From the sequence record ON528742: a stretch of 64,000 nt of DNA; one strand, 5' to 3'. A model generated the notes under the pieces. That model was not told where the DNA came from. It searched no databases and saw nothing but the letters and a program-made list of their open reading frames with translations. The position numbers and the translations under genes are program-made. The first letter of the stretch is position 1; every line of letters starts with the position of its first letter. This document shows positions 6,058-54,386 of the stretch, one piece after another. This DNA comes from Shigella phage ESh32.

Positions 6058-6087
6058 GTTTACAAGACTGTTCTTCCATGGTACTAT
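6058..6087 (+). promoter_or_regulatory. early promoter (GTTTAC, 18 bp, TACTAT)
   Basis: -35 GTTTAC 6058-6063, -10 at 6082-6087. Confidence 0.65.
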
Positions 6088-6124
6088 ATCAATATCAACT
6101 ACTGATACGGATTTGGAGAATGAA

Positions 6125-6505
6125 ATGAAAATCGCTATTTTGGTTATTGCATTAGGTCTTACTGGTTGTGTGGCTCAAGGACCGGTAGTAAATCAGTCTG
6201 ATGTAGGAAAAATTGTAAACTGTTCAAGCAAATTTTATAATCCTAATGTCAAGTGTTATAAAGAAGCTCCAAATCAAACAGTCGAACAAATGCAGGCGAA
6301 TTTTGACGAAGCTATTCGTCCAGATGAATCTGCTCAAGCATATCGTAATTCTGATGTAATTACACGCGAAGAAAAAATTGAAAACTACTGCGCCGAGCTT
6401 TGGGCTAATTGGGCTAATAATTACCAATGGCGTACTGGTAAAAATGCTCCGATGGAGTATGTAGTGAATTCTTATAATTCATGTGTAAAAAATTTGACTA
6501 AGTGA
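6125..6505 (+). CDS. predicted lipoprotein (imm.1-like position)
   Basis: N-terminal signal with lipobox LTGC; SD GGAGAA. Confidence 0.6.
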   Translation: MKIAILVIALGLTGCVAQGPVVNQSDVGKIVNCSSKFYNPNVKCYKEAPNQTVEQMQANFDEAIRPDESAQAYRNSDVITREEKIENYCAELWANWANNYQWRTGKNAPMEYVVNSYNSCVKNLTK

Positions 6506-6512
6506 GGAAAAC

Positions 6513-6764
6513 ATGGAAACTTTAGTAGCAGGTTCAATTTTTATGGTTTTAGTTTCAGGTGTGTTGGCTATTATTATATACATGCTTCCATGGTTCATTG
6601 CCTTGATGCGTGGGTCAAAATCGACAGTAGGAATCTTTTTCACATCTTTACTGTTTAACTGGTCAATTATTGGTTGGTTTATTACATTTATTTGGTCAAT
6701 TGCGGGTGAAACTAAAAAGTCTGCACAACCAAATCAGGTAATTATCATCAGAGAGAAGGAATGA
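6513..6764 (+). CDS. imm: superinfection immunity membrane protein Imm
   Basis: 83 aa, two TM helices, synteny 43-imm-42. Confidence 0.85.
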   Translation: METLVAGSIFMVLVSGVLAIIIYMLPWFIALMRGSKSTVGIFFTSLLFNWSIIGWFITFIWSIAGETKKSAQPNQVIIIREKE

Positions 6765-11530: not shown

Positions 11531-11559
11531 TTTACAAGCTGACAAGACTATGGTATAGT
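11530..11559 (+). promoter_or_regulatory. early promoter (GTTTAC, 18 bp, TATAGT)
   Basis: consensus hexamers. Confidence 0.6.
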
Positions 11560-23011: not shown

Positions 23012-23041
23012 GTTTACTTCCTCGGTTAGTTGTGGTATTAT
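23012..23041 (+). promoter_or_regulatory. early promoter (GTTTAC, 18 bp, TATTAT)
   Basis: consensus hexamers. Confidence 0.6.
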
Positions 23042-24095: not shown

Positions 24096-24124
24096 TTTAC
24101 AAACTCTTGGGATCAGAGTATAAT
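24095..24124 (+). promoter_or_regulatory. early promoter (GTTTAC, 18 bp, TATAAT)
   Basis: consensus hexamers. Confidence 0.65.
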
Positions 24125-24168: not shown

Positions 24169-24660
24169 ATGAATATTAATATCGGCGAAATTGCTCGTGT
24201 ATCTGATAAATCCCGTTCTAAAGCAGCAGGAAAATTGGTCGAAGTTGTAAGCATTCAGCTTAAACACGGTGTTAAAGATGAAGATTCTGAAGTAAAAGTA
24301 CGTATCATTGCTAAAGATGGAATGTCTAAGCCCCAGTTTGGTTATGTTCGATGGAAATTTCTTGAGCCTGCGTTTTTGAAAGCTGTTCCTGCTAAAGGAA
24401 TTGAAACGATTGATACTTCGCATGTAGGTGTAGACTTTAAGTGGAAACTTGGTCAAGCTATCAAGTTCATTGCTCCTTATGAGTTTGAATTTACCGAAGG
24501 TGGACAACCACTTCCTCGGCGTACTCGCGCTATGTGTGCATACATTACTGATCAATGGGTAGAAGATGGCGTTAAGTTATACAACGCGGTATTTTTAGGA
24601 ACATACAAAGTCATTCCTGAAAGTTGGATTAAACACTATAGCAAAGCTCGCTATGCATAA
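24169..24660 (+). CDS. hypothetical protein (163 aa), paralog of preceding ORF
   Basis: shared C-terminal domain. Confidence 0.55.
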   Translation: MNINIGEIARVSDKSRSKAAGKLVEVVSIQLKHGVKDEDSEVKVRIIAKDGMSKPQFGYVRWKFLEPAFLKAVPAKGIETIDTSHVGVDFKWKLGQAIKFIAPYEFEFTEGGQPLPRRTRAMCAYITDQWVEDGVKLYNAVFLGTYKVIPESWIKHYSKARYA

Positions 24661-24690
24661 AGTTTAAAATTTTTTCATAAAACTATATAC

Positions 24691-24733
24691 ATCAGTAGTT
24701 GATTATGGTACTATATCAATATCAACTACTGAT
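24691..24733 (+). repeat. 13-bp inverted repeat flanking a promoter -10 like element
   Basis: ATCAGTAGTTGAT ... ATCAACTACTGAT around TATGGTACTATATCAAT. Confidence 0.7.
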
Positions 24734-24832
24734 ATAGAAAATAATTTGGAGAATAAAATGGAAAATTTGCCAAAGGTGCTGCTACTCTTCTGAAATGCAT
24801 CGCTCCAATGTTCAATTAACGAGGAAATTGTA

Positions 24833-25048
24833 ATGAAACGTAAAATTGTTCAGAACTGCACTAATGACGAATTTGAAGATGTGTTATTCGATCCAGATTT
24901 GGTAGTAGTTCAAAAGGAACACACTGCTAAGTTTACTCACTTGACTTCGGTTTATGTGTATGAAAAGGTTGGGGATAAACAACCAATTTACGGTGTATTT
25001 CGTGAAATCACTGAAGATGGTACAACTTACTGGAAGGAAATTTATTAA
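24833..25048 (+). CDS. hypothetical protein (71 aa; cef-like by position and size)
   Basis: SD GAGGAAA. Confidence 0.5.
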
Positions 25049-25473
25049 TGGCTATTAAATTTGAAGTTAATAAATGGTATCAATTTAAAAATAAACAAGC
25101 TCAAGAAGATTTTATCAAGGACCATACTGAAAACGGAATTTATGCACGACGTCTTGGTATGGAACCTTTTAGAGTTACAGATATTGACTATCTTGGTCGT
25201 CCTACTAAACTTGTGACATCTAGTGGAAAATTGGCGTTATCTTCTGGTAAAGATATTTTGGATGAAGATTTTATCTGGCTTTCAACGAGTGAAGCCGTGT
25301 TCTTTGATGAAGTGGAAAATCCATACCAGGCAGCTGAAGAGCAAGAGCAGGAAGAGAAAGAGCAAGAACAAATAGAAGATTTCACAGAATTCCCGGTCAT
25401 GAAAGTTACTATTGAAAATAATGAACAGGCATGGTCTTTGTATCAGATGTTGAAAGCACACTTTAAGGAATAA
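25048..25473 (+). CDS. hypothetical acidic protein (141 aa; goF-like by position and size)
   Basis: ORF. Confidence 0.5.
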
Positions 25474-25475
25474 TT

Positions 25476-25652
25476 ATGCCAATGTATGATTATAAATGCC
25501 AATCCGAAGATTGCGGGCATGAATATGAAAAAATTAAAAAGATTTCTGAACGAGAAAATGATGTTTGCCCTAAATGTCATCGTTTGTCTACTCGTCGGCC
25601 TTCTGCTCCTAAGCATGTGAATGGCGGTTTTTACGATTTACTTAAAGGGTGA
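25476..25652 (+). CDS. zinc-ribbon protein (58 aa)
   Basis: CxxC...CxxC motifs. Confidence 0.5.
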   Translation: MPMYDYKCQSEDCGHEYEKIKKISERENDVCPKCHRLSTRRPSAPKHVNGGFYDLLKG

Positions 25653-26295: not shown

Positions 26296-26364
26296 AAGGC
26301 CTTCGGGCCTTTAGCTTTATGATTGCCGGAGTATAATATTCCCGAAACCAAACGAGGATAAGTG

Positions 26365-28182
26365 ATGATTAAGAATGAAATTAAAATTCTGAGCGATATT
26401 GAACATATCAAAAAGCGTAGTGGCATGTATATTGGCTCTTCTGCTAATGAAATGCATGAGCGCTTTCTGTTTGGTAAATGGGAAAGTGTTCAGTATGTAC
26501 CTGGTCTTGTTAAGCTTATTGATGAAATTATCGATAACTCAGTAGATGAAGGTATTCGTACTAAGTTTAAATTCGCAAATAAAATTAATGTTACTATTAA
26601 AAACAATCAAGTAACAGTTGAAGATAACGGTCGCGGTATTCCACAGGCGATGGTTAAAACACCTACCGGTGAAGAAATTCCTGGTCCTGTTGCTGCATGG
26701 ACTATTCCAAAAGCAGGTGGTAACTTTGGTGATGATAAAGAACGTGTCACCGGTGGTATGAATGGTGTTGGTTCTAGTTTAACTAACATTTTTTCTGTGA
26801 TGTTTGTCGGTGAAACTGGCGATGGTCAAAATAATATTGTAGTTCGTTGTTCAAATGGCATGGAAAATAAATCCTGGGAAACTATTCCAGGAAAATGGAA
26901 AGGAACCCGTGTTACTTTCATTCCTGATTTTATGTCATTTGAAACTAATGAGCTGTCCCAAGTTTATCTTGACATTACACTAGATCGTCTCCAGACACTT
27001 GCTGTTGTTTATCCTGATATTCAATTTACTTTTAATGGTAAAAAGGTTCAGGGCAATTTTAAGAAATATGCACGACAGTATGATGAACATGCTATTGTTC
27101 AAGAACAAGAAAATTGTTCTATTGCGGTTGGTCGTTCACCGGATGGTTTTCGTCAATTAACTTACGTGAATAACATTCATACTAAGAATGGTGGCCATCA
27201 CATTGACTGTGTTATGGATGATATTTGCGAAGACCTTATTCCACAAATCAAACGTAAATTCAAAATTGATGTAACTAAAGCACGCGTTAAAGAATGTTTG
27301 ACTATCGTTATGTTTGTTCGTGATATGAAAAACATGCGATTTGATTCTCAAACTAAAGAGCGTTTGACTTCTCCATTTGGCGAAATTCGTAGTCATATTC
27401 AGCTTGATGCTAAAAAGATTTCACGCGCTATTCTAAATAATGAAGCAATTTTAATGCCGATTATTGAAGCTGCTTTAGCACGTAAATTGGCGGCAGAAAA
27501 AGCAGCAGAAACTAAAGCAGCTAAAAAGGCTTCTAAAGCTAAGGTTCATAAACATATCAAAGCGAATCTTTGTGGTAAAGATGCTGACACTACTCTTTTC
27601 TTGACTGAGGGTGATTCTGCTATCGGATATCTTATTGATGTTCGTGATAAAGAACTTCATGGTGGTTATCCATTGCGCGGTAAAGTTCTTAATAGTTGGG
27701 GTATGTCATATGCTGATATGCTTAAAAACAAAGAACTATTTGATATTTGCGCAATCACTGGATTAGTTCTTGGTGAAAAAGCTGAAAACTTGAATTATCA
27801 TAATATTGCTATTATGACCGATGCTGACCATGATGGTTTAGGAAGCATTTATCCTTCTCTGCTCGGATTTTTTAGTAATTGGCCAGAACTGTTTGAACAA
27901 GGAAGAATTCGCTTTGTCAAAACTCCTGTAATCATCGCTCAGGTCGGTAAAAAACAAGAATGGTTTTATACAGTCGCTGAATATGAGAGTGCCAAAGATG
28001 CTCTACCTAAACATAGCATCCGTTATATTAAGGGACTTGGCTCTTTGGAAAAATCTGAATATCGTGAGATGATTCAAAACCCAGTATATGATGTTGTTAA
28101 ACTTCCTGAGAACTGGAAAGAGCTTTTTGAAATGCTCATGGGAGATAATGCTGACCTTCGTAAAGAATGGATGAGCCAGTAG
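26365..28182 (+). CDS. 39: topoisomerase II large subunit gp39, undivided (605 aa)
   Basis: GHKL ATPase plus Toprim in one ORF; C-terminus equals T4 gp60 region. Confidence 0.93.
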   Translation: MIKNEIKILSDIEHIKKRSGMYIGSSANEMHERFLFGKWESVQYVPGLVKLIDEIIDNSVDEGIRTKFKFANKINVTIKNNQVTVEDNGRGIPQAMVKTPTGEEIPGPVAAWTIPKAGGNFGDDKERVTGGMNGVGSSLTNIFSVMFVGETGDGQNNIVVRCSNGMENKSWETIPGKWKGTRVTFIPDFMSFETNELSQVYLDITLDRLQTLAVVYPDIQFTFNGKKVQGNFKKYARQYDEHAIVQEQENCSIAVGRSPDGFRQLTYVNNIHTKNGGHHIDCVMDDICEDLIPQIKRKFKIDVTKARVKECLTIVMFVRDMKNMRFDSQTKERLTSPFGEIRSHIQLDAKKISRAILNNEAILMPIIEAALARKLAAEKAAETKAAKKASKAKVHKHIKANLCGKDADTTLFLTEGDSAIGYLIDVRDKELHGGYPLRGKVLNSWGMSYADMLKNKELFDICAITGLVLGEKAENLNYHNIAIMTDADHDGLGSIYPSLLGFFSNWPELFEQGRIRFVKTPVIIAQVGKKQEWFYTVAEYESAKDALPKHSIRYIKGLGSLEKSEYREMIQNPVYDVVKLPENWKELFEMLMGDNADLRKEWMSQ

Positions 28183-28211
28183 TTTACTTTACCACAAGGA
28201 TGTGGTATAAT
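28182..28211 (+). promoter_or_regulatory. early promoter (GTTTAC, 18 bp, TATAAT)
   Basis: consensus hexamers. Confidence 0.6.
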
Positions 28212-32438: not shown

Positions 32439-32468
32439 GTTTACATACCACAAGGACTGTGGTAATAT
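32439..32468 (+). promoter_or_regulatory. early promoter (GTTTAC, 18 bp, TAATAT)
   Basis: consensus hexamers. Confidence 0.6.
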
Positions 32469-32925: not shown

Positions 32926-32955
32926 GTTTACAAGACTGTTCCTCCGTGGTACTAT
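32926..32955 (+). promoter_or_regulatory. early promoter (GTTTAC, 18 bp, TACTAT)
   Basis: consensus hexamers. Confidence 0.6.
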
Positions 32956-32983
32956 TACCCTATCAACTACGGAGGAACAGAAA

Positions 32984-33097
32984 ATGAAAAAGATTATTAA
33001 AGCTATATGGAATGTAGTTATAATACTAATAGTTTTGAGTATATTCCCAATCGTTTTAATGATTGATGTATTAAACGTTTATTTTGGATTTATGTGA
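32984..33097 (+). CDS. hydrophobic micro-ORF (37 aa)
   Basis: SD GGAGG; TM-like. Confidence 0.4.
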   Translation: MKKIIKAIWNVVIILIVLSIFPIVLMIDVLNVYFGFM

Positions 33098-36066: not shown

Positions 36067-36096
36067 GTTTACAACCAAAGCATACTGTGGTACTAT
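36067..36096 (+). promoter_or_regulatory. early promoter (GTTTAC, 18 bp, TACTAT)
   Basis: consensus hexamers. Confidence 0.6.
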
Positions 36097-36137
36097 ACAA
36101 CTATCAACTACTGATACAGAATTACGGAGATTAGAAA

Positions 36138-36773
36138 ATGTCTAAAGTAACTTACATCATCAAAGCTTCTAACGATGTTCTGAATGAAAAAACTGCTGCG
36201 ATTTTAATTACTATTGCTAAGAAAGATTTCATTACAGCTGCAGAAGTTCGTGAGGTGCATCCATATTTAGGTAACGCAGTAGTTAATAGTAATATTGGGG
36301 TATTGATTAAAAAAGGCCTGGTGGAGAAATCTGGTGATGGATTAATCATTACAGGTGAAGCTCAGGATATTATTTCAAATGCAGCAACTTTATACGCACA
36401 GGAAAATGCTCCGGAACTGCTGAAAAAACGAGCAACTCGTAAAGCTCGTGAGATTACTTCCGATATGGAAGAAGATAAAGACCTCATGTTAAAACTTTTA
36501 GATGAAAATGGATTTGTTCTTAAAAAGGTTGAAACTTACCGCAGTAACTATCTCGCTATTTTAGAAAAACGTACTCACGGAATTCGTAATTTTGAAATTA
36601 ACAACAATGGAAATATGCGAATTTTTGGATACAAAATGATGGAACATCATATTCAGAAATTTACTGATATCGGAATGTCATGTAAAATCGCTAAAAACGG
36701 TAATGTGTATCTTGACATTAAACGCTCGGCAGAAAACATTGAAGCTGTAATCACTGTAGCATCTGAACTGTGA
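36138..36773 (+). CDS. motA: middle transcription activator MotA
   Basis: 211 aa, recognised sequence. Confidence 0.9.
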   Translation: MSKVTYIIKASNDVLNEKTAAILITIAKKDFITAAEVREVHPYLGNAVVNSNIGVLIKKGLVEKSGDGLIITGEAQDIISNAATLYAQENAPELLKKRATRKAREITSDMEEDKDLMLKLLDENGFVLKKVETYRSNYLAILEKRTHGIRNFEINNNGNMRIFGYKMMEHHIQKFTDIGMSCKIAKNGNVYLDIKRSAENIEAVITVASEL

Positions 36774-51012: not shown

Positions 51013-51662
51013 TTAAACTCCGCATGCCTGCTGGTGGTGAAAGATACATTGATGGTAAATCAGTTTATAAATTATACTTAATGATAAAACAGCATATGAA
51101 TGGAAAGTATGATGTAATTAAGTATAATTGGTGCATGCGGGTGTCTGATGCCGCTTATCAAAAGCGAAGGGATAAGTATTTTTTTCAGAAGTTATCAGAA
51201 AAATATAAATTAAAGGAACTTGCTTTAATCTTTATAAGTAATTTGGTTGCTAACCAAGATGCTTGGATTGGTGACATCTCTGACGCTGATGCACTTGTGT
51301 TTTATCGTGAATATATCGGACGCTTAAAGCAAATTAAATTTAAGTTTGAAGAAGATATTCGCAACATTTATTATTTTAGTAAAAAAGTTGAAGTTTCTGC
51401 TTTTAAAGAAATTTTTGAATATAATCCAAAAGTTCAATCAAGTTATATTTTTAAACTACTTCAATCGAATATAATTTCGTTTGAGACGTTTATCTTGCTT
51501 GATTCGTTTTTAAATATAATTGATAAACATGATGAACAGACTGATAATTTAGTCTGGAATAATTATTCTATAAAGTTAAAGGCTTATAGAAAAATTTTAA
51601 ATATTGATTCACAGAAAGCCAAAAGTGTTTTCATTGAAACTGTGAAATCTTGTAAGTATTGA
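51009..51662 (+). CDS. 59: helicase loader gp59
   Basis: 217 aa. Confidence 0.9.
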   Translation: MIKLRMPAGGERYIDGKSVYKLYLMIKQHMNGKYDVIKYNWCMRVSDAAYQKRRDKYFFQKLSEKYKLKELALIFISNLVANQDAWIGDISDADALVFYREYIGRLKQIKFKFEEDIRNIYYFSKKVEVSAFKEIFEYNPKVQSSYIFKLLQSNIISFETFILLDSFLNIIDKHDEQTDNLVWNNYSIKLKAYRKILNIDSQKAKSVFIETVKSCKY

Positions 51663-54327: not shown

Positions 54328-54357
54328 TGTTTACAACAGGGTAGTAGTGTGATACTA
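54328..54357 (+). promoter_or_regulatory. early promoter (GTTTAC, 18 bp, TACTAT)
   Basis: consensus hexamers. Confidence 0.6.
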
Positions 54358-54386
54358 TTACCCTATCAACTACTGAGGAGAATAAA

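Follow-up and report, generated by a model that had tools for sequence, protein, structure and literature searches.

The question raised by positions 24,691–24,793 of the DNA of Shigella phage ESh32 (sequence record ON528742; the whole 64,000-nucleotide (nt) stretch analysed is called the window below) is why an early-type promoter should carry its -10 sequence at the top of a perfect inverted repeat and be followed by an open reading frame (ORF) of only 11 codons. A sequence-only reading had described the element as a degenerate promoter cassette that lacks a -35 hexamer, drives nothing except this ORF and records a recombination event between cassettes. The answer favoured here, to which we give a probability of roughly 0.6, is that the element is a working sigma-70-type early promoter for the genes cef-goF, nested in a hairpin that would form only in RNA reading through from the upstream gene motB and would probably serve there as a 3'-end barrier or insulator.

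The anatomy of the element is as follows, all features being on the plus strand unless stated otherwise. The arms of the repeat, ATCAGTAGTTGAT (24691–24703) and ATCAACTACTGAT (24721–24733), are perfect 13-base-pair (bp) reverse complements separated by the loop TATGGTACTATATCAAT, just as the sequence-only reading had it. The 5' arm fills the promoter spacer, the extended -10 sequence (TGG followed by TACTAT, 24706–24714) stands at the hairpin top, and the 3' arm is the leader motif conserved in a family of similar cassettes. From spacing only, the transcription start is predicted at about 24721, 7 nt past the -10 and at the first base of the 3' arm. With this predicted start, the promoter spacer is the reverse complement of the promoter's own first 13 transcribed bases, and therefore the TGn/-10 motif lies at the top of a 43-nt hairpin. 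The stem is lengthened by an inner 5-bp helix, in which TGGTA (24706–24710) pairs with TATCA (24714–24718), and the 43-nt element is a near-complete palindrome with an RNA folding energy of -20.2 kcal/mol (z = -5.97). Markov-1 shuffles of the window predict 0.06 perfect inverted repeats of at least 13 bp with a loop no longer than 40 nt, and two are present; the second one (51070–51082 / 51117–51129, AATTATACTTAAT / ATTAAGTATAATT, loop of 34 nt) is AT-rich and apparently lies inside coding sequence.

T4 early promoters have been described as promoters of the UP/-35/TGn/-10 type (PMC2988021), and all of these parts can be recognized here. An intact A/T-rich, UP-element-like tract, tttaaaattttttcataaaact, common to the cassette family, occupies positions 24663–24684. 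The -35 hexamer that had been taken as absent is represented by ATATAC (24685–24690), which stands at the standard distance of 18 bp from TACTAT and matches the consensus GTTTAC of T4-type early promoters at 4/6 positions, so that the consensus hexamer itself is not found at this site. The extended -10 agrees with the TGn + TAnnnT pattern, and its spacing is that of 14 GTTTAC promoters in the window. The orthologous -35 sequences are GTATAC or GTGTAC in Dhakavirus and ATGTAC in Mosigvirus, and because the nTnTAC type is thus common to the orthologs of both genera, the deviant -35 is an old shared feature of the locus rather than a product of recent decay.

The 341 nt around the palindrome show 99.7% identity to several Tequatrovirus (T4-like) genomes, in which motB and cef are annotated on either side. 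By this comparison, the window belongs to a Tequatrovirus and the palindromic promoter occupies the motB-cef intergenic region; the window is oriented along early transcription, as the reverse complement of the T4 GenBank record. T4 carries the same palindrome and mini-ORF at about 6,540–6,630 of its record, where the equivalents of window positions 24721 and 24733 are ~6594 (complement strand) and ~6582. The upstream gene, motB (24169–24660, 163 amino acids (aa)), encodes a MotB-like regulator of PHROG 1671 (E = 3.9e-75), and is annotated as motB in T4 and T2. The first intact gene on the other side is cef (24833–25048, 71 aa; PHROG 1354, E = 1.6e-38, in agreement with the T4 annotation), followed by goF (25048–25473) and 39.2 (25476–25652). 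Between the mini-ORF region and cef, no further promoter-like site was found in the window sequence or by the promoter scan, and the cargo of the promoter is taken to be the cef-goF-39.2 gene string, not the mini-ORF that had been considered its only product. In the other genera sampled, the orthologous promoter stands directly 5' of cef. At the same time, the T4 records NC_000866 and AF158101 have no promoter features annotated at the motB-cef site, and the papers on MotB, GoF, DksA and omics contain no description of such a promoter.

The 11-codon ORF itself (MENLPKVLLLF, ATG at 24758 to TGA ending at 24793), the boundaries of which had been read correctly, is the deletion scar of a gene lost in T4 and kept in T2, with no function of its own. 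The IMG/VR sequence L008, from a close relative, has an ORF of 89 codons behind the same palindromic promoter and leader, ending 13 nt before cef. Alignment with L008 and T2 (alignment A1) showed that the window, T4 and L007 are without 208 nt of this ORF, and a 4-nt AAAA microhomology (24762–24765) marks the junction, which points to a microhomology-mediated, frameshifting deletion. Since 208 is not divisible by three, the reading frame passes after its first three codons into an out-of-frame remnant, and translation would stop after 11. This 3' remnant (24766–24819, with the ancestral stop TAA at 24817–24819) corresponds in the alignment to the final ~54 nt of the intact L008 and T2 genes (...KFAKGAATLLKRIAPLFN*). 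The intact 89-aa gene is T2_009 in T2 and belongs to PHROG 3720, a family of unknown function; it is present at an identity of at least 95% in 261 Tequatrovirus records, and homologs of ~41% identity were found in about 139 records, mostly of Klebsiella phages, the two that were read being Jiaodavirus.

Comparison of gene content among relatives revealed a third allele in Yersinia phage PYps15T (L064, MT515752.1 ~80061–80152), in which the scar is wholly gone and the leader GGAGAAT is fused to the cef start GTAATG (GGAGAATGTAATG). The locus thus exists with the intact 89-aa gene, with a 62-nt scar or with a direct cef fusion, and the three do not differ by a single base in the palindromic promoter. 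The locus is an indel hotspot beside a promoter-leader cassette, and both mapped deletion junctions lie in the ORF or Shine-Dalgarno regions, outside the palindrome. A leader peptide was considered for the mini-ORF and rejected, as its frame is not conserved: T4 has MENSLKVLILF, with 3/11 residues differing, L007 and L033 have 4 codons, L004 and L030 carry an extra TTC (+3 nt), and L064 has no such frame; among the relatives read, neither peptide nor frame showed the conservation expected of a functional small ORF. In at least one genome, that of the Escherichia phage Elenatom (L002, 1667–1756), a 29-aa minus-strand "hypothetical protein" is annotated over the scar (the equivalent of window positions 24726–24815); it is probably a spurious call.

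The conservation of the palindrome is high. A 53-nt hairpin query gave 497 full-length database matches, 495 of which had at most one mismatch, and the sequences read show this single mismatch to be a single-nucleotide polymorphism (SNP) just outside the 3' arm. Among the 9 Tequatrovirus orthologs aligned, the hairpin does not vary, and it is identical in the window, while the leader and the scar just 3' of it carry several SNPs and indels. From this conservation we infer promoter activity, and it is difficult to reconcile with a degenerate promoter, the more so as other genera keep a hairpin with covarying arms at the same place.

These more distant T4-like loci were retrieved with Cef as the anchor, and in them the spacer of the cef promoter is again complementary to the bases right after the -10, with unrelated arm sequences. 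The arms are GGTGTAGG(AG)/(CT)CCTACACC in L042, L043, L048 and L050; TGGTAGGAGC/GCTCCTACCA in Marfavirus and in L051, L052 and L054; TGGTAGGAGT/GCTCCTACCA in L055 and L056; TGGTAGAAGAC/GTCTTCTACCA in L057; AGGGCTA/TAGCCCT in Karamvirus and Moonvirus; GGTCTA/TAGACC in Mosigvirus; and TAGGGTA/TACCCTA in Dhakavirus. By these alignments, the TGn/-10 motif lies inside a hairpin at the cef promoter in at least seven other genera, with Watson-Crick arms of 7–11 bp and loops of 6–10 nt in most relatives. Compared with spacer shuffles, the spacer-leader pairing is significant in most lineages sampled, including the named Marfa-, Karam- and Moonvirus and the locus L009 with Mosigvirus-type arms (p = 0.02); it did not reach significance for Dhakavirus (p = 0.118), Mosigvirus ATK47 (p = 0.09), Jiaodavirus (p = 0.81) and Gaprivervirus (p = 0.39). 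In Gaprivervirus an 8–9-bp hairpin (-13.7 kcal/mol) is kept with much weaker promoter hexamers, and in the RB49-like ortholog at the cef locus (L020/L061) the stem encloses the -35 and is followed by a T-run.

Covariation was quantified in alignment A3, consisting of 22 distinct promoter sequences aligned without gaps and anchored on the -35 and -10. In the shared register, 9/11 pairs changed on both sides, and such both-side changes amounted to 51 cells against 15.1 ± 3.9 in shuffles, with none of 500 shuffles reaching the observed value; controls with a slid partner, in which relatedness is preserved, gave 7–18 cells.

As to the molecule that folds, the geometry of an internal promoter, with the 5' arm in the spacer and the 3' arm beginning ~7 nt past the -10, leaves the 5' strand absent from promoter-proximal transcripts, and motB read-through transcripts would hold both arms. 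The fold of a 196-nt read-through RNA is built around the hairpin (z = -2.97), and an RNA beginning at 24721 has no more structure than shuffled sequences (z = +0.29). When both strands of the cef-promoter orthologs and of the window's other four promoters with a hairpin are folded, the sense strand is the more stable one in 23/27 cases (means of -16.6 vs -13.0 kcal/mol), and several helices use G-U pairs. This asymmetry is suggestive of a hairpin formed as RNA rather than DNA. Internal G-U and A-C mismatches in the arms, indicative of RNA and DNA pairing, respectively, are found in 5 vs 4 cases and do not discriminate between the two.

The role proposed on this basis is the following. Transcripts begun at the embedded promoter would contain the 3' arm only and stay unfolded, and the motB read-through RNA, arising most plausibly from the promoter-like sequence TTTACA-17-TATAAT found 5' of motB at 24096–24124, would contain both arms and form a stem-loop of -20 kcal/mol about 30 nt past the motB stop. 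This stem-loop would mark and protect the 3' end of the upstream motB RNA and insulate the two units, with the promoter in its loop restarting transcription for cef-goF-39.2. The Shine-Dalgarno sequence GGAG (24748–24751) lies in GGAGAATAAAA (24748–24758), an exact match to the strong consensus GGAGRAYARAA of sites for the endoribonuclease RegB (PMC3014915) and by that match a candidate RegB cleavage site; standing 14 nt upstream of it, the stem-loop could stop 3' exonucleases after a RegB cut. For T4 prereplicative RNAs, many of the 3' ends that have been mapped are considered to be those of stable RNAs and not sites of termination (PMC6024815). The element would thus save space by combining a promoter with a stem-loop for an mRNA end, an overlap that makes sense because the intergenic regions are so short; some relatives have the -35 of the cef promoter immediately after the stop codon of the preceding gene.

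Several points weigh against this assignment of a promoter nested in a read-through hairpin. The two -35 mismatches may make the promoter weaker than its paralogs, and the pairing is weak or differently placed in the named Jiaodavirus, Mosigvirus and Dhakavirus promoters. Covariation is proof that some nucleic acid pairs, not that this is RNA, and the G-U pairs of the TGnTAnnAT motif itself account for part of the asymmetry between sense and antisense strands. T4 is, moreover, the classic system for quasipalindrome-templated mutation, and such templating could make "compensatory" changes without selection and thereby inflate the covariation signal. A canonical intrinsic terminator had to be rejected, the hairpin being AT-rich and free of a U-tract: past 24733 the stem is followed by ATAGAAAATAA, and the terminator scan does not call the hairpin. 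The Shine-Dalgarno sequence is not sequestered either, as the 3' arm ends at 24733 and GGAG, 14 nt beyond, is unpaired in the centroid fold. The searchable literature yielded no 5'- or 3'-RNA-end data for the motB-cef site. Among other structures considered, an RNase III site was rejected as improbable, since the helices are mostly 13–18 bp and shorter than typical substrates, and a search of Rfam 15 gave as its sole match a sub-threshold chance match to RF01078 (21.2 bits vs 65, E = 0.52).

The alternative that survives best, though unlikely, is that the palindrome acts at the DNA level as a cruciform or hairpin, either making the promoter sensitive to supercoiling or serving as a recombination/deletion hotspot or recognition structure in the manner of the shuffling ascribed to promoter-early stem-loop (PeSL) cassettes. 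The near-perfect 43-bp palindrome and the clustering of indels beside it are in line with such a structure, the covariation is equally compatible with DNA pairing, and topoisomerase gene 39 lies in the direction in which the operon runs. In Karamvirus and Moonvirus, GGGC...GCCC is found in the arms, and deletions associated with GGGC/GCCC have been described (Mosig 1998, as cited in PMC2839356). However, the Watson-Crick arms are short in most relatives, the longer helices need G-U pairs available only in the sense RNA, and the two mapped deletion junctions fall outside the palindrome.

Nor does it seem probable that the palindrome is a neutral by-product, that is, that template switching copied the leader inverted into the spacer and that quasipalindrome correction and gene conversion among cassettes have kept it perfect. 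In favour of this, a 5' arm unique to this site and a 3' arm belonging to the family-wide leader suggest directional copying and fit an inverted templated copy, T4 is well known for templated mutation in quasipalindromes, and the arms pair without flaw, although G-U pairs or mismatches would be tolerated in a helix that was merely under selection. Against it stand the persistence of the hairpin across genera with Cef only 37–68% identical and with several unrelated arm sequences, its retention in Gaprivervirus despite the much weaker promoter hexamers, and the same nesting at a third of the window's early promoters.

The proposal of the sequence-only reading, that a recent recombination between promoter cassettes left the palindrome as its footprint and the promoter crippled, without a -35 and driving nothing useful, is now distinctly improbable. 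In its favour is the mosaic look of the element, the flanks being near-identical to those of the cassette copy at 6058 and the spacer unrelated, with a 5' arm that is an inverted copy of the leader motif common to the paralogs; indels between close relatives at the locus resemble those reported near PeSLs (PMC4122927). What can be retained of it is the indel hotspot beside the cassette, with its PeSL-like plasticity. The repeat itself is identical in the intact-gene, scar and direct-fusion alleles, and hence is not the footprint of the event that shortened the ORF; moreover, it is near-invariant in ~497 genomes, other genera keep a hairpin in the same place with different, covarying arms, the nTnTAC type of -35 is common to Dhakavirus and Mosigvirus, and cef-goF would be left without another upstream promoter-like site after the scar. 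The least probable alternative, that a dimeric DNA-binding protein recognizes the arms as half-sites of an operator and shuts off or tunes the promoter, can appeal to the perfect dyad symmetry centred on the -10 and to a shut-off of T4 early promoters that is not fully explained (PMC3014915), but half-sites would be 30 bp apart centre to centre, and the arms differ completely between genera and between promoters of one genome while complementarity is kept, which indicates pairing and not protein recognition.

Nesting of this kind is not confined to the motB-cef element. Significant spacer-to-leader complementarity (each p <= 0.008) was found at 5/15 early promoters in the window, with -10 sequences starting at 11554, 23036, 24709, 32950 and 63810. 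The duplexes at 11554, 23036 and 63810 have energies of -16.8, -15.6 and -15.9 kcal/mol, several with G-U pairs, and the 3' arm covers the Shine-Dalgarno sequence at 23036, 32950 and 63810, so that early promoters are joined there to the masking principle of the T4 genes e, soc, 49 and I-TevI (PMC3014915). The promoter at 32950 belongs to a paralogous cassette (32926–32986) with its own 12-bp inverted repeat around the -10 (arms 32936–32947 / 32969–32980; duplex -20.7 kcal/mol, z = -6.5). Its spacer CTGTTCCTCCGT is complementary over 12 bp, without a mismatch, to ACGGAGGAACAG, the Shine-Dalgarno region of a small membrane ORF that begins at 32984; read-through RNA would mask the ribosome-binding site there and promoter-proximal RNA would not, a control of the lysozyme-e type with an early promoter. 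A general anti-Shine-Dalgarno role of the usual family spacer CTGTTCTTCCAT was rejected, as the complementarity is significant only at 32926, not at 6058 or 53328. Another recurrent spacer hairpin, CCACA-agga(t/c)-TGTGG, whose 3' arm includes the TGn of the extended -10, was noticed at the promoters with -10 at 28206 and 32463 and in the cef promoter of Jiaodavirus (L024/L058).

One third of the early promoters in the window and the motB/cef junction across at least eight genera are the basis for a broader and much more tentative suggestion, namely, that nesting of the extended -10 in a conserved hairpin might be a selected general T-even design, which either ends or stabilises the upstream RNA and starts the next one, or forms a supercoiling-responsive cruciform upstream of topoisomerase genes. 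Covariation provides comparative evidence that early promoters of T-even phages are frequently placed within hairpins. If hairpins of this type do define stable 3' ends, this would help to explain both the independent expression of tightly packed T4 early genes and the lack of terminators at many mapped 3' ends. For a well-known T4 region, the analysis corrects the reading by identifying the 11-codon ORF and the Elenatom minus-strand "hypothetical protein" as products of a deletion scar, points to the promoter as the conserved entry point to cef-goF, and documents an indel series of three alleles beside a regulatory cassette; its value is incremental, and current understanding is not overturned.

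Among the known systems, PeSLs are composite early-promoter/stem-loop cassettes in T4-type phages (PMC2839356, PMC4122927), and the motB-cef element resembles them in its intergenic A/T tract, strong sigma-70-type early promoter, stem-loop, Shine-Dalgarno sequence and ATG, in the occurrence of many repeats in non-essential early regions and in the gain and loss of adjoining genes between close relatives. It likewise combines an early promoter and a stable stem-loop in one intergenic cassette, and the RB49-like ortholog of the locus has the classic PeSL form. However, the PeSL stem is described as lying just upstream of the promoter, as an effective terminator and as often G/C-rich (PMC2839356, PMC4122927), whereas the AT-rich motB-cef stem surrounds the TGn/-10 without a T-run behind it, and its 3' arm is the start of the promoter's own transcript.

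Promoters inside hairpins are known from the T4 genes e, soc, 49 and I-TevI, where only the promoter-proximal transcripts are free of the structure (McPheeters 1986 and others, reviewed in PMC3014915). In these genes, as here, the promoter lies within the 5' half of the structure, so that read-through RNA folds and internally started RNA is without the 5' strand. Those promoters, however, are late (or middle) ones, and the 3' strand sequesters the Shine-Dalgarno sequence or the AUG; the motB-cef promoter is of the early type with the Shine-Dalgarno sequence 14 nt past the stem, and because the hairpin does not cover it, the documented masking mechanism would not apply at this locus and translation masking is not expected. 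The sibling cassette at 32926–32986 fits the masking design. In bacteria, promoter-coupled terminators (Fletcher et al. 2026 preprint, 10.64898/2026.08.19.745784) are similar in that a stem-loop ending the upstream RNA and the next promoter share DNA between tandem genes with short intergenic regions. In these, the stem is the -35, the T-tract is the spacer and the -10 comes after, with RNA 3' ends ~10 bp upstream of the start, whereas the motB-cef element has no T-tract and carries the -10 in the loop. By its sequence, then, the geometry of the element would differ from both PeSLs and bacterial promoter-coupled terminators. T4 early promoters such as that of motA and the GGAG leaders cleaved by RegB (PMC2988021, PMC3014915) are a further known system: the motA cassette at 36067–36140 is of the same family and GGAGAATAAAA fits the strong RegB consensus exactly; they differ in having GTTTAC and not ATATAC as the -35, and in a spacer that is not self-complementary to the leader.

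The recurrence of the promoter-leader unit, which had been listed at five sites, reflects a real family, to which the motB-cef unit belongs as one member of a repeated set of T4-type early cassettes. The strict pattern GTTTAC-N16-GGTACTAT occurs 4 times in the window against 0 expected, and relaxed copies have their -35 at 6058, 32439, 32926, 36067, 53328 and 54329. One position had thus been given a nucleotide too low (54328), the copy at 32926 had been missed, and the motif is less uniform than was noted, since the copy at 54329 carries TGATACTAT and that at 32439 carries GGTAATAT. For the latter, GenBank X75802 lists the T4 equivalent as a promoter. The 13-mer of the 3' arm recurs exactly at 6094 and 36103 and with one mismatch at 54365. 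When the promoter-leader copies are aligned, the closest paralog of the motB-cef unit is the cassette at 6058–6127, with near-identical flanks and the different spacer aagactgttcttccat: 20/22 nt are identical in the upstream tract and 26/26 nt from the -10 onward, the -35 shares 4/6 positions, and the spacer differs at 10/18 positions, with 4 of the 8 shared ones being the ATGG at its 3' end. The cassette at 36067–36140 is the early promoter and leader of motA (ORF 36138–36773, by the T4 annotation). The same cassette, with 83% identity over 95 aligned nt, is present 5' of an unrelated ORF in Mosigvirus LF82-9 (L065, PV660452.1 ~144614–144708), a phage of another genus, and by virtue of this copy the cassette is shared across genera.

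Two minor observations concern the surroundings of the promoter. The palindrome creates a mirror-image extended -10, TGATATAGT, on the minus strand at 24710–24718, from which a divergent start antisense to motB is conceivable; the mirror motif is not conserved in other genera. Additionally, topoisomerase gene 39 (26362–28182) is a single ORF of 606 aa in the window, while the T4 record annotates gene 39 as split by an insertion, with a shorter coding sequence of about 516 aa. The second part of the split T4 large subunit is presumably gene 60, and the unsplit form seen here is what we take to be the T2/T6 type.

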